This document shows, piece after piece, positions 1-44,760 of a stretch of 64,000 nt of DNA. The position numbers and the translations under genes are program-made. Position 1 is the stretch's first letter. Each line of letters begins with the position of its first letter. Origin of the DNA: Siniperca chuatsi (Eukaryota); the NCBI RefSeq assembly GCF_020085105.1, contig NC_058053.1, positions 24,477,196 through 24,541,195 on the forward strand, written 5' to 3'. The notes beneath the pieces are model-generated. The model was not told the DNA's origin and searched no databases. It saw only the letters and a program-made list of their open reading frames with translations.

Positions 1-1795
1 GACTTACTCAAGCCACCCGTACAGCTGGATCTCAGAATGAACTGACAGCTTTCGCATGATGGCGATTTGAGATACAGTTACTAGTCTAATGACAACGCGA
101 CTGCATTATGCAGGCTATCGGGGCCGTCTCAGTCACGTAAGTTTCTCAGCTAGTCATCAGCAGAAGTTGCTTATGACTTGTTAGCTACGTCTGGACACAT
201 TTACTAAGACTCCCAGCAGATGAGCATGTTCACACATTTTGTGAGATGACAGTCTGCTAGTACCTGCCTCACGGCCAGTGCTAGGCATGTCTCACATCGT
301 CATCTATGTCCTAGTGATTCCAGATCTCGTGTACGTATCACTATTCTTACTCGAAACTTGATCTGTACCAGTTTGTATGACCGATCGGTTGATAAGCTCT
401 GCCTCACACTTCAGGCTGACTGCCAGCCTGTCAGTTGAGCTGACTACGTTGATTTGTACTTAGATTACACTCTACTCTCGTAGAGGTACCTGCTTCACTC
501 ACCATGCGCGGTCACCCATGTCTACAGAAGACTCAGGATGCAGGCATAGCTTGCTGAACCTAGATTCTAGCTGTAATTATCGTACTCTAAACTAGTCTCA
601 GTCACTCTCAACCGGTACCTGTCAGGATCTTGGCATGTCTCGTCGACCAGCTGCTGCTGCAGTCGTCCCTCTGACGCAGTTCAGTCAGAACAAGGTCCGA
701 CATGTGCCTGACGTCCTGAGTTCTCAAGTCTGACGCCACTCGTAGTACCAGCTCGACTCTTGCATTCAGACGTTCTGGAATTAGACGCAGCATGCTAGTC
801 TACCAGCTCTGTACTTCAGTTCTGTACCAAGCCTTACACACTCCTAGCTCCACCGTGCTGTTTCTGTGATTCCATCTACGCTGTGGCTCTGTAGATCTTG
901 TCCCAGTGTACCTCATACTTAGCGCGTGACACGTCTGAACGTGTGAAGCTACTGTCTCAGTCACAGAGCCCGGTTCCGTAGAGCTCGCCAGCTCACACGC
1001 TTGCAGCAGCACTGCGATCTCAGCAGTCCTGATCCTGGCTCAAGCTCTATGCAGATGCTGTATGCCGTGCGACATGCGCAGTTCCAGTGCTCCAGCCTGC
1101 CTCATGTGACAAGCTAGTCAGAATCTATCACCGGTGACAGTAGCATGGCCCTAGCAATCTAGCTTATCTGTTACTGTCCCTCGTAACTACGCCGTACGTC
1201 GCAGTCATTGCATGTAGCGAGCGTGCTGCGATCTGTACTTCAGCATTGTACAGAGATTCTGAACGTATAATCCTCTTGTCATGACTTAAGCTGTTACGAC
1301 TCCGCTCCGATCCCTTCTATTCTCGTTCCTGGATCCGATTCTCACGTAGCAGGACAAGCCTGCTAGGACCAACCGCTATGCTTCACCGACGACTGGCGTT
1401 GACTAGATGCTCTTCCCTGGTTCTGCTCAGGGATCACCTCGCTAGTCTCAAGCCGAACGCGATCCGTCTGCCTCCATCTGACACGCAGTAGAAGTGCTTG
1501 TGACATTCTGTCCGACTAGCCCGACTCTACCGCTTACAGTCCTACAACGGCCCCATGTCAGCTTATCGATTAACCATCCGAGATCCGTAGCGCGCTCAGC
1601 AGTCCTGAGCGCTACCCTGTTTCGTTGGTTCTGGTGGTAGTGGGCTGTGACGCTCCAGAGCATGAGCGCATTTTACACCATCAGCCGCTCTCTGCCTGTT
1701 CCTTCGGACCAATGAATCAGATTCTGCCAGCTTACTTAGCATTCATCTCTCGTCCTGCCCTACTCGAGACCTCGTGAGCTTCGGGCTAGCGAAGC
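1..1795. other. Compositionally anomalous block: ~50% GC, CpG not depleted, almost no homopolymer runs or simple repeats, no ORF >71 aa. Origin unclear (foreign, artificial or mis-assembled segment?)
   Basis: Read directly: only about 20 runs of >=3 identical bases in 1.8 kb, against >100 expected for random sequence. Frequent CG dinucleotides. No A/T tracts or microsatellites, whereas the rest of the window is AT-rich with abundant A/T runs. Confidence 0.5.
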
Positions 1796-2304: not shown

Positions 2305-2870
2305 TTTTAACGCACTCCATGACGTGCTGGTCAAGCAAAGGAGTACCTTCAGCGGAAGACTCATCCCCACAATGCACCACAGAGCGCCACAGGAAGTCAT
2401 TCCTGCCTGTGGCCATCAAACTCTTTAACTCCTCCTCTAAGTGTTAGTCTGTATGACCCTAAGTCACTAAACTGGACATTGATCATTACATCTCTGCAAT
2501 ACTTGAAACAATCGTGCAATATTCTGTGTAATACTCCTGTGCAATATTTAGTTTTTCCTATTTATTATTCATACCTCCATTACTGCTCTTGCACTACTAC
2601 TTATTACTTATATTATTACATTGCATTATTATACCATATTATCATCATCAACCGGTAAACCCACTTGGTACTGCACACTTATTTTATTTTAGACTTATAC
2701 CCACCTGGTACTTAATTTATTTTCTGACCTGTTTTTATAGTTTTAGAGTGTATTGTATTATATTTTTTTGCTAGTACTTTCTCCTGTGTGCACTGACGTA
2801 AAGGCGAGCTGCTGTAACAAAGACTTTCTCTTGGGGGATCAATAAAGTCTTTCTGATTCTGATTCTGAAA
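2305..2870 (+). mobile_element. Non-LTR retrotransposon 3' end: ORF2 C-terminal tail (...FSGRLIP..RHRKSFLPVAIKLFN), 3'UTR and (TCTGAT)n tail. Rex1/Babar-like CR1-clade family, copy 1 of 4 in this window
   Basis: Near-identical to 42180-42800. Ends with 'caataaagtctttctgattctgattctga'. The tail peptide motif is typical of teleost LINE ORF2 ends (family name is a hedged recollection). Confidence 0.6.
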
Positions 2871-2894
2871 AAGAGCCAACTGAGTCAAAGAACT

Positions 2895-3140
2895 GTCGCC
2901 TCAACTCTGGCCAATGGCCTTCTCGGAGATGTCCCGCCCCTTCCAATCACCGCACAGTATTTGTTCCCGTTAGACAAAACACACAGCCAATCAGATGGCT
3001 GAATTTGTTCCAATTGCGAGAATCAATGTTTTTCGCATCCAATGGGAGAAGCGGATTTGTTCCAATTTCTCTCAGTGATCCCGCCTCCTGCAAGCGGACT
3101 TTTTACTGCAGCGGAGACAGAAGCAAGTCGGTGAGTGAAG
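2895..3140 (+). promoter_or_regulatory. Putative RNA polymerase II promoter plus first non-coding exon: six CCAAT motifs in ~250 bp, GC box 'cccgcccc', then 'gcggagacagaagcaagtcg|gtgagtg' splice donor
   Basis: Motifs read in the sequence (ggccaatgg, tccaatcac, gccaatcag, tccaattgcg, tccaatggg, tccaatttc). Established: NF-Y CCAAT and Sp1 GC boxes are typical of TATA-less promoters. Confidence 0.35.
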
Positions 3141-3699
3141 CATTTGTCAATTATTATGAAGTATTGGACGGAAAACATGTTAAAAACTTATAATTCCGTC
3201 TGACAGTCATACTGAGCTAACCGAGGTGTTTGTATGTTGTGAAATAGTTGAGTGACGGATGACACAGCGTAAAGTTAGAGCATTATTAGTTCTTACAATG
3301 TCAGACTTTAATTTTACTGTAAGGAATTTATTATATAAACGTTTTTATAAATTGCTTTGTTTTAGCCAGCTAACGTTCATGCTGTTAAAACCATTTTAAA
3401 CACTGTACTGCAGGCTGATAGCATGCTAACACACCCACCGCTGTCGGCTGGTCGGTGTGTTTCATACTGCTTATGTGATTAACAGTCCAGCGGAGCTGAA
3501 GGCAGCCGGCATGTTTTATGGGGAAACTAGCAGCTGGTCGAGTGGCTGGTGGATTCCTTAAGCCTTCCTGTTCCACCAGGAGAGAAAGTGCAGCTCCTCA
3601 CCGTATGAATATTCAATTAGCCATGCTGCCAGGAAGGTAAACAGAGGCGGAGCCTGCCATAGGCAACAAGCGGAGAGAAGCAACAGTCAAAAGGTCGCT

Positions 3700-3850
3700 T
3701 TTATTTACAGTTTTTACAATGTACAAAACATCTACTAAGACTCCACACTCTTCTGCAGTAATTCTGTCTCGGTTAAACTGCTTTACAACCCCTGAAGCGC
3801 TTCTCCAGCTTTGCCACAGCCGGGGATCGAACCGCTGACCGCTGAGCCCC
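3700..3850 (-). mobile_element. Possible tRNA-derived SINE fragment (B-box-like GGTTCGATCCC on the minus strand)
   Basis: Reverse complement reads '...ggctcagcggtcagcGGTTCGATCCCcggctgtggca...'. Only the B-box is recognisable. Confidence 0.2.
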
Positions 3851-3877
3851 CTCCTCTTTTTACTCAGTCAATGAACT

Positions 3878-4122
3878 GTCGCCTCAACTCGGCCAATGGC
3901 CTTCTCGGAGATGTCCCGCCCCTTCCAATCGCCGCACAGTATTTGTTCCCTTTAGGCAGAACACACAGCCAATCAGATGGCTGAATTTGTTCCAATTGCG
4001 AGAATCAATGTTTTTCGCATCCAATGGGAGAAGCGGATTTGTTCCAATTTCTCTCAGTGATCCCGCCTCCTGCAAGCGGACTTTTTACTGCCGCAGAGAC
4101 AGAAGCAAGTCGGTGAGTGAAG
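3878..4122 (+). promoter_or_regulatory. Second copy of the CCAAT/GC-box promoter-like module with the same splice donor
   Basis: Same motifs as 2895-3140. Confidence 0.35.

Positions 4123-4438: not shown

Positions 4439-4470
<32 letters not shown>
4439..4470 (+). repeat. Poly(A) tract (~32 nt)
   Basis: Direct. Confidence 0.95.
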
Positions 4471-6615: not shown

Positions 6616-6682
6616 ATGGAGGAAATCTATGTGAATGTTGAATATGACAAATCTGACTCAAAAATGTCACAGAATCAGACAG
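6616..6682 (+). CDS. Lectin A exon 1: cytoplasmic tail MEEIYVNVEYDKSDSKMSQNQT (YxxV motif); ends phase 1 at a GTAAGA donor
   Basis: ATG at 6616. N-terminus 'MEEIY(V/A)NVE' matches fish CLEC4/CD209-like receptors as I recall them. Donor gtaaga at 6683. Confidence 0.75.
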
Positions 6683-6796
6683 GTAAGAATGAGTAGCACA
6701 TAAGCTGACAGACTAAGCTCTGCATAAATGTGTATTATTATCTGTCATATTACTGTTGTATACTTGATTGTATTCACTGGTCTTCTCTGTGTTCAG

Positions 6797-6898
6797 GTCC
6801 CAGGAGCCCAGAGAGCAGGTTTCATGGAGCTGTTGTTCTCTTTCTGGGGCTGCTGAATGTTTTCCTGCTGGCTTTGCTCATCTGCCTCGGTGTCCTCT
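6797..6898 (+). CDS. Lectin A exon 2: transmembrane segment ...GPRSPESRFHGAVVLFLGLLNVFLLALLICLGVL
   Basis: ORF track 6730-6981. 'ttcag' acceptor at 6796, GTGAGT donor at 6899. Hydrophobic 23-aa stretch. Confidence 0.8.
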
Positions 6899-7472
6899 GT
6901 GAGTCTGGTTCACATTCAGAAGTTAGTCAAGCTGAACTCATGATTATAGGAACATCATTCACTTTAACTTTTCATCCATGATTTACTCTGACCTGTTTTT
7001 AAAATTTTTATTTTTTGTTTCGATTGCATTGTTTTCAATATTTTGTACACAATCAAACCTCAAACAGCCAAATCAACATAACAATGCCTCATTTCATTTT
7101 TGTGACGTGTTCAAATTGAATTGGTGCATTTCAGCATTTATCCAGTATCAACTTAATTGCTTATTACACGAGTATCATTTTCAAGACACAAAAGCAGTGA
7201 CATGTTGTATTTCTACTGCTGACAGCTGCACTGAATTACATTTGATGTTCAATTAAACTGCAGTCAAATATGTTCCCTTTACTGAAGACTGCCAGAGTTT
7301 CACTACACTCTTTGAATGGCAGTATTTCATAAGTTTCATTAAGTATGATCATTGATAATCGTGGGACAAAATAAGGAAATATGTAGTCTTGTGAAATACA
7401 ATAGCTCTTTCTATAGAACATGAATGCAGAAGATATCTTGTGTTTCAGAGAAATGTCTCTTGATTATTTCAG

Positions 7473-7667
7473 ACCATAACTCAATACGTGGCTCAGCTGC
7501 AGATTTCTCCACTATCAAAGCCAACCTGACTGAGCGTCTCCAGGCCAGTGATAACAGGTCTTCTTCCCTGACTGAAGCAAGAGACCTGCTGAATGCCAGC
7601 CTCGTTGAAATGGCTAAAGAGTTGAAAAAGCTTCAGAATTTGTCCAAACAGGGAGTACCTGCATGTG
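7473..7667 (+). CDS. Lectin A exon 3: coiled-coil neck (...STIKANLTERLQASDNRSSSLTEARDLLNASLVEMAKELKKLQNLSKQG...)
   Basis: ORF track 7424-7675. Acceptor 'ttatttcag' at 7472. The 3' end was chosen (7667, 'tgtg|gtattt') to keep phase with the next exon; this boundary is uncertain. Confidence 0.6.
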
Positions 7668-8276
7668 GTATTTAGATTTACTTGCTGTTTCTTTAAACAT
7701 TTCTTACTCAGAAATTCCATGATAAAATCACCCTGCATTGTGTTATGGTATTTTTAGTATTTACTCTATGATTTAGTAGCCAGTTTCAGTCCAAAACTAG
7801 AAATTTTATTAATGAAATGTGGATAAAACAAAAGTGGTCTCTATCTCTGCATGTTACTGCATTGTGGCAGTAAATCTTTCTCTCTTCACAGATGACAAAT
7901 TCTAGTTTCATACTGAATGCTAAACTGCGGACACAACAGCTAACTATTCTCTGTTGGCTGCACAAGAGTTACACTGCATGAGATGATCACTAGTAGATGA
8001 GACCATTTATATGGTTCATTTTTTAAACTTTCGTCTTGTTCTTGTGAAAAATGTAATAATTACAATCATAATCAATCAAGCAGGTCAAAAGTTTGAAAAA
8101 ACAAGCAGAAAAATCACAATTTGGAGTCAAGTCTCAAAGTATCCACCAAGGTTACACCAACCAAATGAGCAGCATTAAAGGGTCATTCATTGAAGAAGTT
8201 GACATACAGACCTAACTTCACAAATACATTAACATGAGTCTTGTTGATCTGTAGTTTCTCTTGATATATCTTGCAG

Positions 8277-8419
8277 AGAAAACCTGTCCTGCAGGATGGA
8301 CGATGTTCAGTTATGCCTGTTATTTCCTCTCTGATGAGTCTGGTTCCTGGGATAAAGGCAGAGAGTACTGCAGAGGCAAAGGAGCAGATCTGGTAGTGAT
8401 AACCAGCACTGAAGAGCAG
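8277..8419 (+). CDS. Lectin A exon 4: CTLD part 1 (EKTCPAGWTMFSYACYFLSDESGSWDKGREYCRGKGADLVVITSTEEQ)
   Basis: ORF track 8261-8554. Acceptor 'tcttgcag', donor 'cag|gtactg'. Canonical CTLD start 'CPxGW'. Confidence 0.85.
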
Positions 8420-8777
8420 GTACTGTGTGCGCGTCTTAGCGTTTCCATTAACCTTCTAGCATGTGTTAACACAACACCTAAAAGCAATGTCTACTTTATG
8501 AATTCAATCAATACATATCTGAACATAAATCCCTGCAACAATTCCTCTGTCTGACTGTGGACATCGGACCACACAAAATATCCAGGTGGCCATCTGGCAA
8601 AAGGATTTAATGAAACTCTTTTTTGTTTTTTTTGTTTAATTCTAGGTAATTATAATGACCTAGGTTACAACAATTTAACTTTTACTTTTGTTATTCATAG
8701 ATTCAGATAAATACTTGTAAATGGCACATATTGTGGTTAAAACTAAAATATAATGTGGGTTTCCTTATGTTGAACAG

Positions 8778-8881
8778 CGTTTTCTCTTGGGGTTAACCAA
8801 GAAACCTTCGTGGATTGGTTTGAACGACAGAGATGTGGAGGGGACCTGGAAATGGATAGATGGAACTCCACTGAATCTGAC
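8778..8881 (+). CDS. Lectin A exon 5: CTLD part 2 (RFLLGLTKKPSWIGLNDRDVEGTWKWIDGTPLNLT)
   Basis: Translated by hand. Acceptor 'tgaacag', donor 'gtaagg'. WIGL(N/T)D motif. Confidence 0.85.
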
Positions 8882-10011
8882 GTAAGGCTTCACTTTGGTT
8901 GAATATAGACATGAACATACAACTATCATTTTATATTACTTTATTTGTTTTGGATTGAATTTCCAGCAGAGATTTCTCACAAGCATAGATGCTGTGCATG
9001 CATAACATCTTTTGTTGATGGCCATCTTTGGTGAAGCCCATAACCAAACTACCTGGGCACAGGTAGTCAGTTTTTGGCCGCATGGGGGAACTCAAGTTGC
9101 TAAACTCAAAGCCCTGATGTATAATCACCTTTTTAAAACATTTTATTGCAAATGTGATGGCAAAAATGTACACATCCAGGAGACACAGACCAACATTTAC
9201 TTTCATCTGGACTTAATTAATGTAAGTCAAATGGTCCATCTCTAATTAATTAACTTTCTTTCACCACTATCTCCTGAGAAAAATATGACTCTTTAGCTGC
9301 TTTTTTTTCTTTCACCAGCTAGTCTGTATCTTCATCAGACATTTGGTGCTGGCAGTGTACAGTGTTTATCTGAAATTATTTTGCTAAAAACAGCTTCCTG
9401 CTGCTGGAAATGGAGTTGATGAGTGCAGTAAGACTGAACTATACAGTAAACGTGCCTTAAAAATCAAGAGGTTAAAATGCTGCACAGTTGGGTGATAATT
9501 CTCAGCGAGTTCATCACCGTTAGCAGCGACTTTCATCACACGTAGACATTTGATTCATTGTTAACATAAGAATATTGGGCCTCATGCAAGAGCATTTTCA
9601 TAGTCTTACCCTAAACCTCTTTAGTTTTTTTTTTTTACTCATGTGTTTCAAGTCGAATTCAACAGACTGATAACCTCACAAACTATAAAATTACTCGTTC
9701 AGGTGAGGAGGTGCAAGTTTGCGATTTTATCATTATCATAATCAATTTTCCTATAATCAGATCTCTAAGTTTAAAAAACAAAACTAAAATTGACAAACCA
9801 TAATGAGGACCCCCCATGACTAATGCTGCTTCTTGGAGGACAGTTTCTTTAGAAAACACTACAAATGAGCCATTTCAAAGATATGAGAAATTTCCCAAAT
9901 TAGGATGATATTGGACCCAGTGTTTCAGAAAAATGACTTGTTCAGCCACTGAAGGGCTGCGTTCATGTAAGAGAAACAGTGTCATGATTCTCTTGTTCAC
10001 TGACCTGCTAG

Positions 10012-10162
10012 GTACTGGCACAACAATCAGCCTGATAATGGTGGCGGGAGCCAAAAGTGGGGTGAAGAGGACTGTGCACATATCAGAACGGAGTGGAGCA
10101 ATCATTGGAATGATTTATCATGTAATGCTGCTCTGCAATGGATCTGTGAAAAAATTGCGTAA
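10012..10162 (+). CDS. Lectin A exon 6: CTLD part 3 (YWHNNQPDNGGGSQKWGEEDCAHIRTEWSNHWNDLSCNAALQWICEKIA*), QPD motif
   Basis: Hand translation in the phase inherited from exon 5. Not in the ORF track, whose 9933-10205 ORF is in another frame. QPD = Gal/GalNAc-type Ca2+ site; WND and the cysteines are conserved. Confidence 0.85.
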
Positions 10163-13013: not shown

Positions 13014-13111
13014 GACACCGAGGCTGATGAGCCCAGCCAGCAGGAAAACACTCAGCAGCCCCAGACAGAGAACAACAGCTCCACGAAACCTCCTCTCTGA
13101 GCTCCTGGGAC
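13014..13111 (-). pseudogene. Lectin paralog C: TM-exon-like copy (SGPRSSERRFRGAVVLCLGLLSVFLLAGLISLGV), 3'-truncated
   Basis: The reverse complement matches the TM exons of A and B, with the 'ctgtgttcag' acceptor retained. The last ~6 nt and the donor are replaced by TTAGGG-like repeats. Confidence 0.6.
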
Positions 13112-13237
13112 CTGAACACAGAGAAGACCAGTGAATACAGTCAAGTATACAACAGTAATAATGACAGATGATGATAACAATAAACATCTATTCACAGCTC
13201 AGTCTGTCAGTCTCTCAGTCTGACTGAACATTCTTAC

Positions 13238-13289
13238 CTGTCTGGGTATTTAAGGGTCTTGGGTCAACAGGTTTGTCGTGTTCCTCCAT
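13238..13289 (-). pseudogene. Lectin paralog C: exon-1-like copy (MEEHDKPVDPRPLNTQT, gtaaga donor) lacking the IYVNVE (YxxV) segment
   Basis: Reverse complement aligned with B exon 1 (MEEIYVNVEHAKPVDARPSTNQT). Similar upstream flank. Confidence 0.5.
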
Positions 13290-13329
13290 TGATGCCGACT
13301 ATTTTATGAAGGGTCACCTCTGCAGCACA

Positions 13330-14395
13330 TGCTACGTTACATGTAAATGACTTAAGTTGTCTGCAGGACAAACTCTCCCAGCTGAGTGTGACTGACTCCA
13401 CCTGCAGGTGGATCACACACTTCCTGTCCGACAGGAGGCAGCACACAAGGCCGGGGAAACGTGTCTCTGACTCCCGGACCATCAGCACCGGTTCCCCCAA
13501 GGCTGCGTTCTTTCGCCTCTGCTCTTCTCCCTGTACGCCAACAGCTGCACCTCCAGTCATCAGTCCGTCAAGCTCCTGAAGTTCACGGATGACACCACCC
13601 TCTTGGGCTCATCTCTGATGGGGATGAGTCCGCTTACAGGTGGGAGATTGACCATCTCATGATCTGGTGCAGTCAGAACAACCTGGAGCTCAATGCTCTC
13701 AAGACAGTGGATATAGTTGTGGATTACAGGAAGAACCCAGCCCCACCTGCCCCCATCACCCTGTGTGACTCCCCAGGTGACACTGTGGAGTCCTACGCTT
13801 CCCGGACACCATCATCACCCAGGAGCTCAAGTGGGAGCTGAACATCAGGTGATTGGCTGCAATCTACCTTCCCTCCAGGACCTGTACGCCTCCAGGACCC
13901 CGAGGCTGCAGGAAAGATTGTGGCAGACCCCTCCCACCCTGGACACAATCTGTTTCAGACACTCCCCTCCGGCAGGAGGCTGCGGTCCAAAAGGACCAAA
14001 ACCTCACGCCACAAAAACAGTTTCTTTCTGTCTACAGTTTCTTTCCGTCAGGACCCCCACTGACACTGACTCCCATAACCACCCAACTCACCCCTTTTAG
14101 TACAGACTGTACAACTTTTGCACATTCCCATGTAAATATTTTGCACATCTCTGCACAAACTGTAATTTAAATAAGTCATATTGTACATATACTTTATTAT
14201 TTTCTTATGCTCTTTTTAAATATTATTTAATATCTTATTGTCAATTTTATCTTATATTTATGATTCTTGACCTGCAGTACTTGCTTTATCTTTCCTCATA
14301 TTTCTACTATGTTTACTGTTTTGCGCCAAAATACCAAAGCAAATTCCTTGTATGTGTGAACCTACTTTGCAGTAAAGCTGATTCTGATTCTGATT
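13330..14395 (+). mobile_element. 5'-truncated non-LTR retrotransposon (RT domain ...GAPQGCVLSPLLFSLY...FTDDTT... with frameshifts, then the ORF2 tail ...LQDLYASRTPRLQERL...HPGHNLFQTLPSGRRLRS... and a ctgattctgattctga tail). Copy 2 of the Rex1/Babar-like family
   Basis: ORF track 13388-13579, 13659-13841, 13717-14100 and 13853-14170. RT motifs read by hand. Confidence 0.7.
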
Positions 14396-14678: not shown

Positions 14679-14832
14679 CTAAGCCAGTTTTTCACAGATC
14701 CATTGCAGAGAGGCATCACACCGCAGGTCGTTCCAGTTTTTAGTTTCCTTGCTAGCATTGATGTGTGCACAGTCCTCTTCCCCCCACCGTGGATCTCCAC
14801 GACCATTATCAGGCTGCATGCTCAGCCAGTAC
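14679..14832 (-). CDS. Lectin B exon 6: CTLD part 3 (YWLSMQPDNGRGDPRWGEEDCAHINASKETKNWNDLRCDASLQWICEKLA*), QPD motif
   Basis: Hand translation in the inherited phase. Stop TAG at 14679-14681. Confidence 0.8.
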
Positions 14833-15106
14833 CTAGGAGGTTAACAAGAAAGTTCATTTTCACAGGATTGGCCAAAGCCCCCAATAAATGCAGCTTTAAG
14901 TTTTCCAGTGAACTAATTTGTGGAGATAAAAAAATTGGATTTGAAGTCAACTTATGAGTTACAAGTAATGTTGCAAATTCAGTTCAGTCTGATTCTGATA
15001 ACAATTATTTAGACAAGCATACAACAATAAACTTAGTCATGTACAGCAATAGTTGTATATGTGTCTATATTCAAATAAGGTGTAGAACATGTACTGTATG
15101 CCTTAC

Positions 15107-15213
15107 TCCAGAGTCAGTGGCGTTTCATCAGTCCACTTCCAGGTGCCCTCACTGTCTCTGTCATTCAAACCAATCCAAACAGAAGATCCTTCCTTGAACT
15201 TAGTGAGGAATTC
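15107..15213 (-). CDS. Lectin B exon 5: CTLD part 2 (EFLTKFKEGSSVWIGLNDRDSEGTWKWTDETPLTL)
   Basis: Hand translation. 'gtaagg' donor. Confidence 0.8.
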
Positions 15214-15839
15214 CTGTTCAAGGTAAACGAAAGAAAGCCAGTATTCATACTTTAATTTTAACCATTCTATATATGCAATTTACAGGAATTAATTCAAACA
15301 CTCCGATAATAATTCAGTTTTATTGGGCTCAAAAATATATTAACTATTATAATTGTAACCTAATCATTATAGCTGATACAGTTAATGTTATTTCAGAATT
15401 GTATGTCCACACCTGTATCTACCACATATACATAGAGTAAAAATTCATAACAAAAGATGGGAGGGCATGAGTTAGTTGGTGTTTTCTATATGCAGGCGAG
15501 AAACAAAAACATATGTGGATGAGGAAAACTTCAATCTGAAGGAGGCAAAGGGGAAAGATTTGATTTGCCATGTTGCCACCATTATTATCCACTTTTAAAA
15601 CTAAAGGTGACGTCAGAGTGATATTCAATCCCTATTTATTCCAAGGTTCAAGGTTCAATTTATTCATCCATAAATTTATAGAAATTACATTGCTCCCAAT
15701 CGAATCAACCAACTCTGATTTCAGAACACAAGAAATAAATACCCATCAAATAAAGACAAACATAAAAAGAACATAAAAACATATTCCACAATAAAAAGTA
15801 TATATATATATAATAAAAAGCTGAAAAGTGCAGCTTGGT

Positions 15840-16215
15840 GAAAAGGAGAAAGTGTGGTCAGTGGTGGCAGAAGTACTCAGATCTTTTTCTTAAGTAGAAG
15901 TAGCAATAACACAGTGTAGAAATACTCTGTTACAAGTAAAAGTCATGCAGTACAAAGGAACACATTTATAATAATACATGATAGTTTATTTGTTGATAAA
16001 ATGTTGTATTAATAATCTGAATATGCAAAGTTACTAGTAACTAAAGCTTTAAAACAAATGTAGCGGAGTAAAAAGGACAATATTTGCCTTTGAAATGTAG
16101 TGGAGTATATGAATAAAGTAGCATAAAAAAGGAAATACACAAGTACCTCAAAAATGTACTTATGTACAGTTACGTAATTCCAAGGTCTTGGAATTTTTCT
16201 TTTTATAGAAAACTG
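15840..16215. repeat. Copy of the 'tacttaagtaaaagtac' repeat family (in a lectin B intron)
   Basis: Same motif words. Confidence 0.45.
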
Positions 16216-16396
16216 GACAAAAACGTTGTGTACATAAAGCATTTAGGAAGTTGAAGTTGAGTCATTTTTATTTTTAGTCACAAATTTGTCTCAGATGGCT
16301 TTACAATCTATACAACACACAGCACCCTCTATATAGAGAGCCCTGATTCGGGTAAGGAAAAACTCCATATAAAAGGGATAAAGTAGCACACACTAC

Positions 16397-16539
16397 CTGT
16401 TCTTCATAACTGTCTATTACCACCAGATCTGCTCCTCTGTTTCTACAGTCTTCTCTGCCTTTTTCCCATGATGCATACTCAGTGGAGAGAAGATAACAGG
16501 TACAACTGAACATCCTCCATCCTGCAGGACAGGTTTTCT
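16397..16539 (-). CDS. Lectin B exon 4: CTLD part 1 (KTCPAGWRMFSCTCYLLSTEYASWEKGREDCRNRGADLVVIDSYEEQ)
   Basis: ORF track 16301-16513 (-). 143 nt, the same length as A exon 4. Confidence 0.85.
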
Positions 16540-16599
16540 CTGAAATGCATCAAACAAAAGACATTAAAGATCAGAAAAGACCCATGTCTGTCTATCTGA

Positions 16600-16770
16600 G
16601 AGGTTGTGGATTCAATGCATGTTCTGTGGATGGCAATGTTTGAGAAATAACCAAGTAATGTACAAGTACCTAAAAATTTTACTTACGTGCAGTGCTTACA
16701 GTACACCCCTACTCCTCACACTCTACTATAAGTCAAATTATTTATTAGATTAAATGACTTATTACTTACA
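16600..16770. repeat. Copy of the 'tacttaagtaaaagtac' repeat family
   Basis: Same motif words. Confidence 0.4.
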
Positions 16771-17313
16771 GTACTATTTCTAACTCACATGATGCACATC
16801 AGAAAAAAGGAAGGCGATATTAAAATAATTCCTGGGAAGCAAAAATATTGTAACTTGGAAATCACCATATAAAGAAGTTGTACTATCATGAAGCAGATCA
16901 CAATCGTATGAGGAAGTGAAAGTCTTTCAAATGCAGAACTGAGGATCCGTTCAGTCTGTCAATGACAGCAGCTGCTTGGAATAAAACATCCTGCTGAGGG
17001 AAAGTGTTGTAGTCCTGCATGTTTCTTTCCAGTCCAGTTTTTTAGGGAACAGTTTAAGCAAAGAAGTCTGTTCACCTTGGAAGCAAGTTATGACTCAGCT
17101 GTTGCATATGACTGTTAATGTAGCTTCACACATACAGTGGCCGCATTTAAAACCTAATATTTGGACTGAAACTCTGGCTTTTAGCTATAAAATTGAGCTG
17201 AGAGTAGGATATAACAGTGTCATATAAGCCTGTTCTCTGGATCATGGTGTGGGTCCTGACCTAACCTCATGTTAAGAGACAACTGTGCAGAACCCACACA
17301 GGCAAGCACTCAC

Positions 17314-17448
17314 TCTGTTTCGACAAACTCTGCAGCCTGTTCAACTCTTTAGTCGCTTCAGTAAGGTTGGCATTCAGCAGGTCTCTCTCTTCAGAGACGG
17401 AGGACAGGTTGGCTTTGATAGTGGAGAGTTCTGAAGATGAATCACGGT
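17314..17448 (-). CDS. Lectin B exon 3: neck (RDSSSELSTIKANLSSVSEERDLLNANLTEATKELNRLQSLSKQ)
   Basis: Hand translation. GTGAGT donor. Paralogous to the A neck. Confidence 0.7.
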
Positions 17449-17698
17449 CTGATATAAATCAAGATACACGTTTCTTAAACAGCAAATCCTTCATGCATTC
17501 ATACTGATACTGTCTTAAGTTTCTATACTTTGGTAAAAAAATCAAGTCTATATCATTTTGCTGCTCTAGCTGCTTGAACATGACTTTTTACTATGGGTGG
17601 AAAAATTCATATTCATGGAAAATATATTTACAAAACAAGTACTTCATGAGGTCAATGTTTAATTTAATTCATTTCAAACTTATGAAAACCAGACTCAC

Positions 17699-17800
17699 AG
17701 AGGACACCGAGGGTGATGAGCCCAGCCAGCAGGAAAACACTCAGCAGCCCCAGAAAGAGAACAACAGCTCCATGAAACCTGCTCTCTGGGCTCCTGGGAC
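17699..17800 (-). CDS. Lectin B exon 2: TM segment (...GPRSPESRFHGAVVLFLGLLSVFLLAGLITLGVL)
   Basis: ORF track 17664-17870 (-). Same acceptor and donor context as gene A. Confidence 0.8.
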
Positions 17801-17898
17801 CTGAACACAGAGAAGACCAGCGAATACAGTCAATAATACAACAATAATAATGATAGAAAATAATACACATTCATTCACAGCTCAGTCTGAGTTGTTAC

Positions 17899-17968
17899 TT
17901 GTCTGATTTGTTGAAGGTCTTGCATCGACAGGTTTGGCATGTTCAACATTGACATAGATTTCCTCCAT
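17899..17968 (-). CDS. Lectin B exon 1: MEEIYVNVEHAKPVDARPSTNQT (YxxV motif)
   Basis: Hand translation of the reverse complement. GTAACA donor. Coordinates +/-2. Confidence 0.7.
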
Positions 17969-22642: not shown

Positions 22643-23857
22643 CCTGCAACACACAGATAAATGTTTCAATTTTTCATTTCCTATGCAAACCAATGTCCCA
22701 CTTCCCCACGGACTGCTAGTATGAAAAAGCATGCTAATAGTCAAGGACAAAAAAATATGTTTTTTTAAATCCAAGAAAGACAAAAAAACAGTACTGTAAG
22801 TTGCTTTGGACAAAAGCGTCTACTAAATGAATGCAATGTAATGCAATATGTTACACGTTATATACAGTATGATGACACTGAAATTGCTTAGTAAGAGATT
22901 GTAAGGAAAACCCTGTGGTGAAAGGAATGACATTTAATAAAAATAAACTTTCAAACTATGGCAGAACTTAACTTAAATATTGCTAAAACTGACGCAAAGC
23001 AACTGCTTTTGTAGCCCAAATTGGCTCTGCTCATGGACGCATGCTGTCAGAATACATCATTGAAACTGCTGACATTAAATCACTCACAACACTGTCTGTT
23101 AAGAAATGGTTCCAGTGTTTGAACAAAGTGCAATGCAGGCTTCGTGACAGATAGTGGTCCTAGAACAATGGGTTACAAAAAAAATAAATCAAAAAATCAA
23201 AAGATCAGAATTGATAAACCTTTCTCAAAGAAGACATTTTAACTTTCTGCAGGAAAAGCAAAGGTTTAATTTAGGCACACAAGTAAGCCAGCATACAAAA
23301 TATTAGGGCCCTGGAATTGCTACACCTGAATGAAATGCAGCCATGATTTATGTTTTTAGTTTAAGCTAAGTTTAGTTTCATCTGTTCATTGGCTACATTC
23401 AAGTAGACCCAATGAAGTTTTATCATATCTTACTGAATGCTGCATCTTGAAGATCTTTGTCCATCTGAGCTTCAGTACTTCAGGATCTGCTGCCTCTCTC
23501 CTGAAACAACATGATCACAGCAGGACACTCTTAGTGAATATTGACAATGATGTGACAGCTGTTCTATATTAACAACACACATGCATCCAGAAATGTAAAC
23601 ATAAACACACACTTATGCTGACTTTCTTTTCCTTCCACATGCATAGATGCATACATAGGACAAATAACTTTCAGTCCATTAGTCAGTTAACATACAGATG
23701 ATGTAGTCTGTTTTCATTTTTTCAACCAAAACCTTGCCACCATTTCAAATGAGTAAAGCATTTTGACAACAACAATTGATTCACAAGAATTATTATTAGG
23801 GTTTTCTAAGTTGAAGCATATCTAAATAATAATAATAATAATTGTTTTTGGACTTAC

Positions 23858-24813
23858 TCGAAGGGTCGATGAACTGGTAAAAACAGAGGATCAGGGTGCT
23901 TCATGCCTGACGCAGGATAAGCCTTCTGCAAAGCTCGGGGGCGACTTAGACTACTATTTAAAATCCCACTCCCGAAAACAGGCTGAGGTACACCTCCATC
24001 AGGGGCAAATTCACTCTGGGCCTGACTTGCCCCAAAAGAAAAAAATGTTGGTTGAACTGCTTCAGGCATTCTTAATGAGCCTAGTGCCATCCTTTTCTTA
24101 CGTGGGAATTTGTTTTCAAGTTGGTGCATCGACGGATGCAATGCATCTTTTGTTGGATAATCCCATTTAAGGGGTTGGACTTGAGGCAGAAGGGGTTCTG
24201 AAGTCCCAGAAAATTCCTCTCTAACTTTAGAGCCACTGAAACCAAAACCTGATTGTTGAACTTCAAAACTGTGTTCTCTCCTCCCCACCCCAAAGAGAGG
24301 CTTGTGTAAGCAGTGATCTCTTTTTGAATTTCTAGTGAAATCATCTGTAGAAGGTGCAGGTGCAAGTCCTGTGTAAGAGAGGATTTTCATAGAGGCAGGG
24401 GAACTATTGTTTGTGCCATAAGACTCAGCAGCCAACTGAGGCATGCCTAGATCACCACTGAGAAGATTCCTGATGTCTCTGAGCGTGGGAATTTCAGGTA
24501 AAAAGGAAGCTTGCATCCTTAAGTTCCCTGAACTTATATGTGTCACCACTGACTCACTGACTAGAACTGACTCATCATAATGGAGAGAGGGAGAGGGTTT
24601 TCTAGCTACAGGAGGAGGAGATGGGCAAGGAGGAGGAGGAGGAGGAGGAGGAGGAGGATCAAATGAGAGGCCTGGATGAACACTGAAAGTGTGCGACTCG
24701 GGTTGCGGAAGTCTGTCGCACAGATAAAATCCCACTTCTTCAGATTCCATCTCTTCATACGCCTCTTCCACACAAACATTTTCCTCATCTCTCATATAAA
24801 AAATGTCGTCTTC
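23858..24813 (-). CDS. PARP4: PARP4 large proline-rich exon (EDDIFYMRDEENVCVEEAYEEMESEEVGFYLCDRLPQPESHTFSVHPGLSFDPPPPPPPPPPCPSPPPVARKPSPS...KHPDPLFLPVHRPFE); ~318 codons
   Basis: ORF track 23854-24795 (-, 313 aa). Acceptor 'ctgttgtag', GTAAGT donor. Corresponds to the long low-complexity Pro/Ser-rich exon of vertebrate PARP4. Confidence 0.8.
24628..24659 (+). repeat. PARP4: (GGA)n trinucleotide repeat inside PARP4 coding sequence; encodes the poly-proline run (P10) on the minus strand
   Basis: 'ggaggaggaggaggaggaggaggagga' read directly. Confidence 0.9.
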
Positions 24814-30840: not shown

Positions 30841-31326
30841 CTGTTGAGCAATGGAAAACAAACAAAAACACGAGAACACCAGCCATTTTACTTTCAATGC
30901 TGAGCCCCTCACATACTATGATATCCTTGCCTTTCCTCTAAACTCCATACGAAATTCAAGCAGGTGGGGACAGTCTAGCACTAGCCAAGACAGAAAGACA
31001 CAAGCCTGATGCAGCAAAATAAATAAACAAAAACACTTGGCCTCGGTTTATAATTTCTCCTGTGATGAATGGTTCATGCAAAAGTAAGTTAGCTTGGTGA
31101 TAGCAAACTAAACATTAAATTGAAGACCAAACACTGCAGGCAAGTCCCGCTATGTTTGATATGTGTTGCTACCTAATACATTTCATTGACTAAAAAACAC
31201 TACCAAAAGGAAAATAAGGAGCAGAAATTAAAGAAATCACAGTGATGCAAATACACTTTGTTTTCTTGCTGTTTTGCTCCTTTTTTTTTTAGGTTTTGTC
31301 AGACCTCCTGTCCAGGTTCTCCTTAC

Positions 31327-31491
31327 TTGTGTGGTCTGGTTGAGCGCTGCACTCTCCTGCCATGGAGCCACACTCCCAGGCAGGGAGAAGAGAATACTCC
31401 CGTCCCTGACGATCAGCTCAGACACAAAGGTAACTTTAATGAGGACAGTTGCATCAGGTGGCAGATTGCCCACACTGATGGTGAACACATC
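31327..31491 (-). CDS. PARP4: PARP4 VIT exon (DVFTISVGNLPPDATVLIKVTFVSELIVRDGSILFSLPGSVAPWQESAALNQTTQ)
   Basis: ORF track 31237-31581 (-). 165 nt. Human DVFTVSVGNLPPKAKVLIKITYITELSILGT...ATVAPWQQDKALNENLQ. Confidence 0.9.
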
Positions 31492-32384
31492 CTGCAGTGA
31501 GTACAAAAATAACATGACAACCAGTGTAGAGAAATAGAGTTGCGAAGAGAGAGGAGCTATTTCAGGCACCCCTGGTTCCACAAGTAAATTTCATTTATTT
31601 TTCCCATAGACAATGTATGTGACTCACAGCTGGAGCTCCTCTACGCCTTGGATTGGCATGAAACTCTCCAGGTTAAATCATCAGTCCAAAATTTTAACAA
31701 CTGCGTTAGAAAATACCTGGTCCTTTGATACAAAGTAGACGGTACAAGCTTGTGTACATAAAAATTTCAGAAGTTAACGAAGTTAACTACGACTCCCACG
31801 GTGCATTTCGGCAAGAAACATCCAATCACTAAACATAAAATTCTGTCATGTGCGCCGCCAACAGCGGGTGGAAGCTAACGATTATGCTGTTGAAAAAAAT
31901 GATTTTATAATCTGCAGCTTAAGTCAGTTCAGTTTCAATTTTGGGGTCAACTTTGGTTGAATTCAGCAACTATGGCGCCGGGTTTTGTTGCAACAACAAA
32001 GCGTTTTGAATTGGCCACCGCTCTGATTCGCGCCTCTGACTGGATTCTTCTCCATGGCAATGGCCGCTGAGGCTCATGGGTATTGTAGTATTTCTAGCAA
32101 AAGGACAGTAACATTGAAGATATTGTTGAAAGAAAAAAATTAAATGGGAATACAGAATGGAGAAAAACACTTACGGAAGCAGCGGTTTCCACTTCACAAC
32201 TCTAAACACTTTTATGTATCAATTTAATTATTTGATGACATTAATGAAATGCTGTGAAAAGGGTTATAAAATATTCTGATATACTGATTGTGCAGTCTAA
32301 TATTTTAGGATTGGAAATAGCTAAACTTAGAGCTTGAATCAGCACAATGATATGTGTTTGGTTGAGTGCAGATTGTGGACATAC

Positions 32385-33387: not shown

Positions 33388-34702
33388 CTACACACACGCA
33401 CACACACCAAAACATACACAAAATCCTTGTTTTCTGCATTGCAATCACAACAATACAGGACATCTCTTTAAAATCTCTTTCAAAAACAAGTTTAACAAAT
33501 TACAAGTAAACTAAAAAAATGTAAAACCAAGTATTTCATTGAATGAATGTGAAAATAAAACCCGAGTCTGTATTACTTAAAGTAATTATCATTGATAAAA
33601 CATAACACCTTGAAATTATTATTTTTTTTTAAAGTGACTCAAGACTCAAAACACCCCTTAACTGACAGTACATTGTATTCCATTTACTTTCATAATTACC
33701 ATTTATGTATGCTGATTTTAGTACAGTATGTTTTTTTTTCATGCTTCATAGTGTATATAGTAAAAGCTACGTGGAATCAATAAAGGTTTTCTTATCTTAT
33801 TCCATAATAATCCACATAATTTACAACATCTAAAGACTTTCAGTCATTCTTGAGGAAGGCTTTAACTTCAGTTACTTCTGCATGGAAATGTGATGAATTA
33901 TAATGACTTGCTTTGATGTGATGGTTAGCAAGACAAAACGCTGTCTCTGGTGATGATAACTGACTATGTCTTTGGAAATATGGGATTGCCTCCTTAGGCA
34001 AATTTCAGGGTGTCATAGTTTTAAATGACACAGTAGACTGTGCTGCAGTAGGTTTGCCACATTTAGGCTTTTAAAGGCCAATAATGATATAGATATCTTG
34101 AAACAGAAACCACTGATAGCCAAACCTTGATCATTGCAAGGCCAAAACACTGTGGAGATTCTGTCTCCTTGCCCATGTATTTCCCGTGTGTGTCTCTGCT
34201 GTGTGACCCCTGTAATTAAATGTCCCTGTAAATCCCGTATTTTGTATAATTCTGTATAAATTCTGTATGTCTTACTTGTTTGTACTATGTTTGCACTGAC
34301 TGTGGAAAAGAATTTCGTCATTGAGGACAAATAAACTATCTATCTATCTAATCAGAACGGTCCTCTCATTGGGATGGAAAAGCCTTTGAAACAGCATTTA
34401 GACACTAAACACGAAAACTAAAACTCTGCTAAAACGTTTCTGTGGTCTGAAGTAAAGTACTCCACACTTAAGCTGAGTGGACCAGAAAATTGCACTTTGA
34501 TGGTATTTCAACACAATTTTGACTTCATCAAAGTGCTTTAAGAGCCGAAGAAGTCAGATAATTTTTTCAATCATGTAATCTCTCAACTGAAAAGAAAACA
34601 CAACAATCGCCACCAACACTATGGTGTGTAACATCAGAATTTCATTTTTAAACTGCTAACTCTTAGGAGAACTATACTTTGAAATATTTTGCAGGTGCTC
34701 AC

Positions 34703-34844
34703 CTTGGTCAGAAGATGGCAGACTAGGCTCAGCTGAGGTGTCGATGGCAGGACTGAACTCTTTCAGTTGGTCTCCCTCGATGCTGAACTGAACCACGTAC
34801 TTCAGTTTCACCTGATCAGGACTGTACACCACATATTCATCATC
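34703..34844 (-). CDS. PARP4: PARP4 catalytic exon (DDEYVVYSPDQVKLKYVVQFSIEGDQLKEFSPAIDTSAEPSLPSSDQ). Catalytic Glu in the DDEYVVY context is conserved
   Basis: ORF track 34656-34907 (-). Human DDEFVVYKTNQVKMKYIIKFSMPGDQIKDF. Confidence 0.85.
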
Positions 34845-35192
34845 CTGGAGCACAAGTATAATTATACATGTTAAGAGGCATAGACGAAGAGGCATGTATA
34901 CAGGCATAGACGTATTGATGTGTTACTGCAACATAATGTAGAACAAGAAAACATTTTTTTTTTTGCCTGTACATACATGCTTTTATTCCAGTTTTTAATG
35001 AAGTTAAAACTCTTAACTTTGTGTTCAAGTGTTCCAAATCAGAATTGAAAAATCAATTTGATTGGTCATCATGATAAACAACCGATCTGTGTCCCATATT
35101 AGGAATGAAAATCAGTTTAGGGACACTTCGTGTAGAGGAAGGCCCTTGTTCTATTTATCTTTCTATCTACATTCACACTCAAACACTCCTAC

Positions 35193-40112: not shown

Positions 40113-41640
40113 CTTGAGAGAAATGTATATTATTAATAATAGTAATTCTAGTACTACTGTAATGGCAGTGGTAGTAAGCTAAAATTAAATTGCAGCTTTA
40201 CCTTTTCAAAAATCGAATACTTGGCCACTTGAAAATTATCCGGATACGTTGGAAGATCAGAATCAGTTTCAGTATAATGTCTGTGAAAATTTAACAATTG
40301 AAGACAAAAATGCAAAGATCAATGACATTTTATTTATTTTATTTGGGAATACGTTTTTCTGCAGAAATGCTTATGAAAACTAAATGTTGACTTAGTTTTT
40401 AAACTCTTGTAGTGTGTTTTCTCCAGTTGTTTCTACCACCATGTGACAAAGGTATGTGATAATATGGTTATTCTACCAGAGGTGTGTGGGTGAAGAAAAG
40501 GAAGGAAAATTATCCATTTTCTTTTGAAAATTATTCTTATGGTGGGCTGCCTGTGAGTGTGTGAAAGCTACTCTCTTTAGTATTATAATAAGTCTATAAT
40601 AAGTCTTATAATACGTCTTTGACTGAAGGAGCAGGGAATACTCAAAGATATACAGGAATAGGCTGTCAATCAGCTTCATAAAGGCCTCATCTGTCTATGC
40701 CAAAAGTGTCACACTATATTTACGATGCCAAATAAATGCTTTAACCATCTTTAAAATTAATAAGATTTTGTTGTATGGCATTGTCTCCTAATCCCCAGTG
40801 TTAATATAACACACTACTGTGCATGTCCAGGATGATCGTTGTTCACACCTGAACTTTCCCAGGACGTTTCCGCTCCTCTCCGGACTCTTTGCCCTCTGAG
40901 GCGCGCCAACTGCTTTGCTTGTTGGTACTTTGGACACTACAATGCACAAGGCAGAACACATATACATTAATAACACACCCAACCTCTGGTATGCATTTAA
41001 ACACACAGGCTATGTAAGCGAGGTGACATATGGATTCCTGAGAAGGATCATGAGTCACTGTGTTGGAAATGGGTGGAGTTCTGATTTCTGGTTCAGCCTG
41101 TCTGTCCTCTGTAACTGGCTGACACAGTACAAACAAAGTGAATGATTAGCATTTTACATTGCCACATCTCTGATTGCACAAACAGTGTACAAACCCACAC
41201 TGCATAATCTGCACATTTTAAAACAACCCAACTTTAATTTTTAATTTATTTTAAAGTTCGATACATAAAAAGATAAATAACGAGCATTTACAAATATCAG
41301 GGTTAGGGGTAGGCGTGCTGCAGTAACAGGGATCAATAAAGCTCGGATTTGCATAGCCCTGTAGCCACCGACAGTTTAGTTTTGGAGCCAGCGTTGGTGA
41401 TGTCCTTTTCTTTGGAGTTTGGTAAGTTTACTTTGAGTTTGGCGCTATTTTCCTTTGCCTATCCAACCATAGCAGCCATTGCTACTCATGCTAACTAGCC
41501 AATTTTTCTATTTACTACAAACAAACGAGAAATGTAAAATTTAAGATGCATCCATTAGTGAATTTTAAAGACTTCCTGGATCGAGATTGATCAATATCTA
41601 TGTGCTTTTTGGAAACAATTACTGCTTATAAGAATAATAC

Positions 41641-41866
41641 CTTGATGCAAGAGTGGGCTTTGCCTCTGTGAGAAGAGAGGAAGAGGAGGTGAAAAAGTGG
41701 AGAGAGAGGAAGTATCCAGCTTGTATTCATCCACAGGCAGAAGAACTCCTCTCTGCAGACAGCTGTACACATAATCCACCCCGACCACGGGCGTTTGGTA
41801 TTTTTGAATGCTACGCAGCCTGTTGGTGCTCAGGTTGGACACATCACTGGTCACTACCAGAGAGCA
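41641..41866 (-). CDS. PARP4: PARP4 BRCT-domain exon (CSLVVTSDVSNLSTNRLRSIQKYQTPVVGVDYVYSCLQRGVLLPVDEYKLDTSSLSTFSPPLP...). 3' boundary uncertain
   Basis: ORF track 41591-42025 (-). Acceptor 'ttcccacag'. Aligns to human CTHIILDNADVLSQYQLNSIQKNHVHIANPDFIWKSIREKRLLDVKNYDPYKPLDITPPP. Confidence 0.6.
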
Positions 41867-42052
41867 CTGTGGGAAATGAAGGCAGAAATCAGAAAGCAAG
41901 TTGTGATTTTTGTTACTGTATATGAACATATCCAACGCGCAGAAGTGCCCTGGAATCAGACAAAATCTAGGAGGCAGCAGCATGCATTGCTGCCATGGTG
42001 TCTTACTGACATACAGAATAATCATGAATGCTGAATCTACATTAATAGTACA

Positions 42053-42800
42053 TTGAAGAAGGATATCACCGCCAGAGAGTCAGCTCCACCCCACAATGTC
42101 ACTGGCCTGATCCGTAAGGCCAGTGACATTGTGGGGCTGGAGCTGGACTCTCTGGCGGTGGTGTCAGAGAGGAGGATGCTGGCCAAACATGCCATCTTGG
42201 ACAGTGTCTCCCACCCTCTCCATGACGTGCTGTTCAAGCAAAAGAGCACCTTCAGCGGAAGACTCATCCCCCCACAATGCACCACAGAGCGCCACAGGAA
42301 GTCATTCCTGCCTGTGGCCATCAAACTCTTTAACTCCTCCCTCTAAGGGTTAGTCTGTATGACCCTAGGTCACTAAACTGGACATTGATCTTTACATCTC
42401 CGCCATAATTGAATAATTGTGCAATATTCTGTGTACTACTCCCATGCAATATTAGTTTTCCCATGTTAGTTTTTCCTATTTATTGTTATTGATATTATAT
42501 ACCTCTATTACTCTCAACAGTACATGCACCTCTGCTTATTACTTATTACTTATTTTGTTACATTGTATTATTATACTGTACTATCATCATCAACCGGTAA
42601 GCCCACTTGGTACTCGACACTTAGTTTATCTTATACTTATACCCACCCGGTACCTAATTTATTCTCTGACCTGTTTTTATAGTGTTTTTATAGTGTATCA
42701 TATTGTTTGCTAGTACTTTCTGCTGTGTGAACTGACGTAAAGGCAAGCTACTGTAACAAAGAGTTTCCCTACGGAGATCAATAAAGTATTTCTGATTCTG
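42053..42800 (+). mobile_element. Non-LTR retrotransposon 3' end (ORF2 tail ...SVSHPLHDVLFKQKSTFSGRLIPPQCTTERHRKSFLPVAIKLFNSSL*, 3'UTR, ctgattctgat tail); copy 3, inside PARP4 intron 1, antisense to the gene
   Basis: ORF track 42053-42346 (+). ~90% identical to 2305-2870. Confidence 0.7.
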
Positions 42801-42883
42801 ATATTTAGTTTTTAATAAAAGGCCTTAACCAGCCTGATATCTCTGCAAACAGTCATGCCTGGTACTAAGGAACATCCTCTGAC

Positions 42884-43849: not shown

Positions 43850-44760
43850 TGCCAAAGGGTATACATACTCTTCTTCTTTTCCTTTCGGCTGTTCCCTTTC
43901 AGGGGTCGCCACAGCGAATCATGTGCCTCCATCTAACCCTGTCCTCTGCATCCTCTTCACTCACACCAGTTAACTTCATGTCCTCTCTCACTACATCCAT
44001 AAATGTCCTCTTTGGTCTTCCTCTAGACCTCCTGCCTGGCAGCTCCAACCTCAGCATCCTTCTACCAATATATTCACTGTGTCTCCTCTGAACATGTCCA
44101 AACCACCTCAATCTGGCCGCTCTGACTTTATCTCCGAAACATCTAACATGAGCTGTCCCTCTGATGTCCTCGTTCCTGATCCTGTCCATCCTCGTCACTC
44201 CCAAAGAGAACCTCGACATCTTAAGCTCTGCTACCTCCAGCTCTGCCTCTTGTCTTTTCTTCAGTGCCGCTGTCTCTAAGCTGTACAACATCGCTGGTCT
44301 CACCACCGTCTTGAACACCTTTCCTTTCATTCTTGCTGATACTCTTTTATCACACAACACACCTGACACTTTTCTCCACCCGTTCCAACCTGCTTGCACT
44401 CGCCTCTTCACCTCTTTTCCAAGGTCTCCATTGCTCTGAACTGTTGACCCTAAGTACTTAAAGTCCTGCACCTTCTTCACCTCTGCTCCCTGTAACCTCA
44501 CCGTTCCACCTGGGTCCCTCTCATTGACACACATGTATTCTGTCTTACTGCGGCTAAGCTTCATTCCTCTGTTTTCCAGAGCAGACCTCCATCTCTCTAG
44601 ATTTTCCTCCACCTGCTCCCTGCTCTCACTACAAATCACAATGTCATCCGCAAACATCATAGTCCATGGAGATTCCTGTCTAACCTCATCTGTCAGCCCG
44701 TCCATCACCAGAGCAAACAAGAAGGGGCTCAGAAAAGCCATGCATTTAAAAAATTCTACT
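43850..44760 (-). mobile_element. 5'-truncated non-LTR retrotransposon: reverse transcriptase C-terminal half (FADDIVICSESREQVEENLERWRSALENRGMKLSRSKTEYMCVNE...RWRHMIRCGDP), ~0.8 kb upstream of the PARP4 start
   Basis: ORF track 43899-44741 (-, 280 aa). The FADD motif (YADD variant) and RT thumb are recognisable. Clade not assigned. Confidence 0.85.

Follow-up and report, generated by a model that had tools for sequence, protein, structure and literature searches.

The window analysed here, 64,000 nucleotides of Siniperca chuatsi (mandarin fish) contig NC_058053.1, contains two CD209-like C-type lectin genes arranged tail-to-tail (convergent), one at 6616-10159 on the + strand and the other at 14682-17968 on the - strand, both with exons 100% identical to NCBI Siniperca chuatsi proteins, which by themselves assign the window to this species or a near-identical one. 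Between the two genes lies a partial third lectin copy (a first-exon homologue at 13014-13283, - strand), and beside this copy, at 13.3-14.1 kb, is a fragment of a Rex1-like reverse transcriptase. Further to the right, weak Pfam matches to VIT and BRCT in exon-sized frames at 31237-31581 (-) and 41591-42025 (-) are consistent with a PARP4-like gene occupying ~24-42 kb of the - strand. The longest ORF of the window, an ATG-initiated frame of 313 aa with a proline run (23854-24795, - strand), is found on the 3' side of this PARP4-like gene, and the searches revealed neither a Pfam domain nor a homologue at E<=1e-20 for it. A LINE reverse-transcriptase ORF of 280 aa is present at 43899-44741 (-; RVT_1, E = 3e-14). 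Simple sequences occur at 4440-4470, ~39.8 kb, ~47.9 kb and ~57.8 kb (an A31 run and (TA)n, (CT)n(CA)n and (GA)n microsatellites); they represent normal repeat content and are absent from the first 1.8 kb. There are no Ns in the window.

The subject of this analysis is the left end of the window, positions 1-1795 (the block), together with the DNA that adjoins it. As the preliminary description had proposed, the block gives way to a GC-rich segment and then to a LINE tail. The unique GC-rich segment (1796-2312, no strand assigned) has 64-65% GC, a CpG observed/expected ratio (o/e) of 0.78 and an identical-neighbour fraction (the proportion of bases followed by the same base) of 0.34. With this normal-to-high homopolymer content, it is the first stretch of the window with the look of ordinary DNA. 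Searches with 1796-2312 yielded no homologue, at either the DNA or the protein level, in the collections covered, and an exhaustive search with this region returned just repetitive multi-stretch matches and one 100-aa protein aligned over the LINE-tail part. The LINE 3' fragment itself (2313-2866, + strand) is 5'-truncated, has the C-terminal ...RHRKSFLPVAIKLFN and finishes with the tail (TTCTGA)3. A second LINE 3' copy at ~42218-42802 (+), which also has TTCTGA repeats at its end, is 84% identical to 2313-2866 and carries a different sequence upstream; the divergence of the two copies upstream of 2313 led us to reject the idea that 1796-2312 is part of the adjoining LINE. Next comes a tandem duplication with a unit of ~983 nt (2879-3018 and 3862-4000, 93-96% identical), in which a 32-nt motif containing CCAAT occurs five times, along with near-identical open frames of 109-115 aa with no Pfam match. 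With a CpG o/e of 0.71 over 2867-4000, the DNA adjoining the block forms a CpG-rich domain. The gene start nearest to the block is the first coding exon of the + strand CD209-like gene, at 6616.

The composition of the block is unlike that of the remaining window. Its GC content is 0.513 and its CpG o/e 0.80, compared with 0.32 over 4001-64000, which bears out the GC of about 50% and near-random CpG frequency noted in the preliminary description. The identical-neighbour fraction is 0.153, where the base composition predicts 0.254 and the rest of the window has 0.278; the block is thus, as had been claimed, poorer in homopolymers than the neighbouring fish DNA. The scarcity of runs described earlier is real, although the counts given for it have to be corrected: the block contains 30 runs of at least 3 (not roughly 20), with 87 expected (not more than 100). 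Runs of at least 4 number 4, compared with 23 expected, and 4 is the maximum run length. In 1000-nt windows the identical-neighbour fraction was 0.131-0.160 in the block and 0.278 ± 0.020 in the background, whose minimum was 0.224, which places the block ~6 sd from the window background.

The boundary of the block is sharp. A single-change-point fit placed the maximum-likelihood switch to the next segment at 1800-1806 (support interval 1611-1810), in agreement with the abrupt change reported near 1795. Within the block, two parts can be distinguished, neither with an assigned strand. The stronger part (1-1256), which reaches past the left edge of the window, has an identical-neighbour fraction of 0.137, lag-2 and lag-3 identities of 0.218 and 0.223, 19.4% of 4-mers with all bases different, a GC content of 0.50 and a CpG o/e of 0.72. 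Past ~1256 the signal weakens, a change that the preliminary description did not mention, and the weaker part (1257-1795), which terminates at the change point, has an identical-neighbour fraction of 0.191, a lag-2 identity of 0.207, 13.6% of all-different 4-mers, a GC content of 0.54 and a CpG o/e of 0.98. The composition also drifts slowly along the block (A from 0.25 to 0.19, C from 0.25 to 0.32), and its + strand is pyrimidine-rich, with a purine fraction of 0.435 (z = -5.5). Among the non-identical dinucleotides, CpG and TpA are the rarest, and AG/CT and CA/TG the commonest.

The depletion reaches beyond homopolymers, to lags 2 and 3, a property that was not part of the preliminary description. 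Identity between bases was 0.214 at lag 2 and 0.235 at lag 3, and the value given by the composition (0.254) is regained from lag 4. Words of the ABA type are scarce (ATA at 0.27x, GAG at 0.47x), and 4-mers with all bases different make up 17.6% of the block, compared with 9.1 ± 0.8% in iid sequence and 8.0% in the rest of the window; CTAG and AGCT rank among the commonest 4-mers. As natural comparators we used 1795-nt windows from the remaining 62 kb of fish DNA, from 50 kb of E. coli K-12 and from 48.5 kb of phage lambda, the last two of which have ~50% GC, as the block does. The identical-neighbour fraction of the block (0.153) lies below the minima of these comparators (0.222-0.239), and its fraction of all-different 4-mers (0.176) above their maxima (0.106-0.111). 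The block statistics are thus far beyond those of the natural DNA compared, and the earlier view was right in holding that the block differs from ordinary teleost DNA and has a constrained look. Note that five ordinary patches of the window, at 13090-13452, 23385-23727, 34641-34954, 49583-50006 and 52649-53077, combine few identical neighbours with many all-different 4-mers. These patches (300-400 nt) approach the local values of the block; they are never sustained, and we regard them, for that reason, as the sampling tail of ordinary DNA.

The way in which runs are extended gives further information about the source of the block. The probabilities of extending a run from 1 to 2, from 2 to 3 and from 3 to 4 bases were 0.159, 0.124 and 0.133, while in fish DNA they were 0.26, 0.33 and 0.34. 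The block behaves as the output of a stochastic process in which the bases just used incur a soft penalty of short memory and run extension is memoryless. In support of this, the phase of identical pairs was uniform for moduli 2-12 and no Fourier peak was seen, which led us to discard a triplet or block code; likewise, a design under a hard run-length cap is excluded, since four runs of 4 occur and extension stays flat (0.12-0.16). Flat extension, runs of 4 and the lack of phase together argue for a stochastic generator, sequencing noise for example, and not for design by hard rules. Moreover, the block contains 1268 distinct 6-mers, fewer than the ~1450 calculated for uniform random sequence, and is therefore not a de Bruijn-like non-repetitive design. 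The defining marks of constrained-coded or designed DNA (a hard cap, with codeword periodicity or maximised k-mer diversity) were thus not found in the block, and the designed origin that had been suggested for it is supported in part only.

The block does, however, reuse words. Exact words of 11-14 nt recur in it with unrelated flanks: GTCTCAGTCAC is present in three exact copies on the + strand (126-136, 595-605 and 954-964), and TCTGTACTTCAG (at 808 and 1232), CTCAGCAGTCCTGA (1019 and 1595) and GGCATGTCTC (284 and 632) in two each. Nine pairs of 11-mers are held in common within the block, where Markov models of order 1-3 give 1.0-1.9. Such reuse with unrelated flanks is not how natural repeats behave, but would be expected of a generator that prefers certain outputs. 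Tandem Repeats Finder reported no tandem repeat in the block (its first report is at 2128), and the self-alignment scores equalled the Markov-2 expectation, which revealed no hidden direct or inverted repeats. A degenerate tandem repeat or satellite, which would also be expected to raise the lag-4 identity, was rejected on these grounds, since that identity is not raised. Enrichment in restriction sites or palindromes was also considered and set aside, 6-mer palindromes being at expectation and 4-mer palindromes ~1.5-2 sd high.

Searches for homology, repeats and coding capacity gave a uniformly negative picture. Their scope comprised plasmids, phages, E. coli and prokaryotic and metagenome contigs, fish DNA being represented by the other 62 kb of the window. 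No similarity to these 62 kb was detected and no terminal repeats were found in the block; nor did any Pfam domain or Rfam family appear in it. With no copy in the window, no domain and no terminal repeats, the block does not have the features of a transposable element. Open frames reach at most 79 aa, compared with a Markov-1 expectation of 113 ± 26 aa for the longest, and the block has no coding potential. The claims that it lacks microsatellites, interspersed-repeat words and ORFs beyond chance length therefore stand. Using blastn with 11-nt words, we obtained no match to the block in the plasmids of PLSDB (72,556) or in 20,395 E. coli records; among 50,697 phage records, lambda included, the sole match was one of 34 nt with E = 0.5, as expected by chance. 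Two 30-mers of the block had no exact occurrence in 185,579 prokaryotic genomes or in JGI metagenome contigs. Finally, no member of a panel of sequencing adapters and common primers matched beyond shuffles after correction for 18 tests, the best being TruSeq R1 (p~0.02). An adapter origin was rejected accordingly: the 12-mer in common with Illumina TruSeq and the 8-mer in common with an ONT adapter are not significant after multiple testing.

These searches bear on the possibility that the block is synthetic or in-silico DNA of another origin, either a library spike-in, control or construct, or a product of gap-filling, padding or a generative model at the file level. Several properties would suit such an origin: the balanced GC, the avoidance of homopolymers and ABA words, the doubling of all-different 4-mers, with CTAG and AGCT among the commonest, the reuse of exact words with unrelated flanks, the slow drift in composition, and the fact that the start of the block coincides exactly with the edge of the window. 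Against it, the block resembles no known sequence in PLSDB, the phages, E. coli or the adapter panel, as a vector, adaptor or spike-in would, and the preliminary suggestion of a vector or foreign insertion consequently found no backing. A common spike-in would also be expected to leak into prokaryotic and metagenome contigs, from which the two 30-mers are absent. The soft constraint, the lack of codeword phase and the shortage of distinct 6-mers argue further against constrained-coded, barcode or de Bruijn-like designs. We therefore consider a synthetic origin of this kind unlikely.

Another possibility could be that the block is a genuine single-copy, CpG-rich (unmethylated) region of the mandarin fish with an unusual composition, located upstream of the CCAAT-rich duplicated segment and the CD209-like lectin gene. 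The classical CpG-island thresholds are formally reached (GC 0.51, CpG o/e 0.80, more than 200 bp), the neighbours at 1796-2312 and 2867-4000 are CpG-rich as well, the preferences among non-identical dinucleotides are vertebrate-like, and by sampling the natural patches of 300-400 nt reach similar values. The sequence side of the CpG-island idea put forward in the preliminary description thus holds, but it leaves the homopolymer anomaly unexplained: in the CpG-rich segments next to the block, homopolymers are at normal or raised levels (identical-neighbour fraction 0.28-0.34), and being a CpG island therefore fails to account for what is seen. In addition, no comparable 1795-nt window exists in the fish, E. 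coli and lambda DNA compared, neither repeats nor a gene, an RNA family or an ORF were found in the block, and one of its strands has a strong pyrimidine excess. We know of no mutational or selective process that strips identities at lags 1-3 evenly for the four bases while run extension stays memoryless. Reverse-complement symmetry was tried as a discriminator and abandoned; at k = 4 the block has r = 0.39, which is lower than in fish non-coding DNA (0.64 ± 0.14) but equal to the value of bacterial DNA, and hence not decisive. Taken together, genuine fish DNA of this kind appears improbable. We would give a very slim chance to the specific proposal that reads support a kilobase-scale, single-copy fish sequence that avoids its previous one to three bases. 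If that were true, it would imply a mutational or selective process as yet unknown, or natural non-templated synthesis, and a real block would represent a class of composition for which natural DNA offers no known example.

A third alternative is that the assembler or the polisher made the block from real reads, either as homopolymer-compressed or run-length-encoded sequence that was left uncorrected, or as a consensus of non-homologous reads at a false join. The depletion of homopolymers and the sharp boundary with normal sequence would be consistent with this, and glitches have been reported for wtdbg-type assemblies. Simulations, however, did not reproduce the block. Full compression predicts an identical-neighbour fraction of 0, while the block keeps 241 runs of at least 2, and partial compression of fish DNA, tuned to a fraction of 0.15, gave a lag-2 identity of at least 0.30, compared with the observed 0.214. 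A MAFFT mimic of the consensus of 2-8 unrelated fish segments had identical-neighbour fractions of 0.25-0.32 and lag-2 identities of 0.28-0.30. Since both types of simulation miss the observed lag values, the signature must stem from the read sequence itself. Nor could any similarity be detected between the block and the fish sequence elsewhere in the window. This alternative is, in our opinion, very improbable.

The reading that we favour, with moderate confidence, is that the block consists of non-templated long-read noise, kept at a contig end or at an assembly glitch and never polished; most likely, then, it is no biological feature. Such noise would best account for a kilobase-scale block with no second copy in the window and no homologue among the sequences searched, for its soft, memoryless source and few favoured words, for the lack of coding potential and for the sudden passage into normal sequence. 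Its statistics lie outside those of templated natural DNA, as those of a technical artefact would. In the proposed sequence of events, a long-read base-caller, most plausibly of Oxford Nanopore, would emit the block from uninformative signal. One read would then bring it into the assembly, as a contig-end overhang, a local glitch or a weakly supported join, and polishing would leave it intact, as no genuine long or short reads would align there. We infer that the generator was a base-caller working on noise, that nanopore reads underlie the assembly and that the block is located at the end of a contig or at a join. By our reasoning, nanopore noise would yield both the depletion at lags 1-3 and a word usage such as that observed. 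Homopolymers are systematically called too short in nanopore base-calling, whereas same-base insertions are added by PacBio noise (branching, sticks), and Nanopore is for these reasons the likelier platform. The vertebrate-like dinucleotide biases of the block could reflect either the prior of the base-caller or a real origin. Against long-read noise, unsupported sequence is usually trimmed or deleted by assemblers and by Racon, and the real neighbours of the block are themselves CpG-rich (o/e 0.71-0.78). A search of the literature for composition data on nanopore noise reads returned nothing usable. One published S. chuatsi assembly rests on Nanopore reads corrected with Canu and used WTDBG 1.2.8, Racon, Pilon and LACHESIS (PMC9321114); another rests on PacBio Sequel II reads and used Canu and Pilon (PMC12119445).

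If the block is an artefact, it matters as quality control only, as a non-biological stretch in a public fish assembly. As an immune lectin gene begins 4.8 kb downstream, it could then mislead analyses of promoters, CpG islands and synteny, and it would flag a possible break or misjoin in the assembly. The measures used here (identity at lags 1-3, all-different 4-mers and flat run extension) could serve as a cheap, reference-free screen for junk in long-read assemblies.

Finally, the block can be compared with the known systems that it most resembles. As in the sequence of assemblers that use homopolymer compression or run-length encoding, homopolymer runs are much scarcer than expected; compression, however, removes all runs and raises the lag-2 identity, while the block keeps runs of 2-4 with flat extension and has lowered identities at lags 2 and 3. 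With constrained-coded synthetic DNA (barcodes, data storage, spacers) it has in common a GC content of ~50%, few homopolymers and no repeats or ORFs. Unlike such DNA, it obeys no hard limit on run length, lacks block or phase structure and does not maximise k-mer diversity; it reuses exact words of 11-14 nt, and it is contiguous on the kilobase scale and joined to fish DNA. As occurs with vertebrate CpG islands, its GC exceeds 0.5 and its CpG o/e 0.6 over more than 200 bp, next to a CpG-rich neighbour and upstream of a gene; CpG islands, however, are not depleted in homopolymers, and the CpG-rich neighbours in this window have identical-neighbour fractions of 0.28-0.34, compared with 0.15 in the block. 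The last comparison is with the "random" and "junk" long reads and the assembly "glitches" that form categories in the long-read assembler benchmark of Wick and Holt (PMC6966772). The junk reads are described there as low-complexity, which the block is not, and the descriptions of junk reads and glitches give no composition statistics for comparison (PMC6966772). As with these junk reads and glitches (PMC6966772), the block matches nothing among the sequences searched, adjoins normal sequence abruptly and carries no genes or repeats, and the species from which it comes has a Nanopore/wtdbg assembly.
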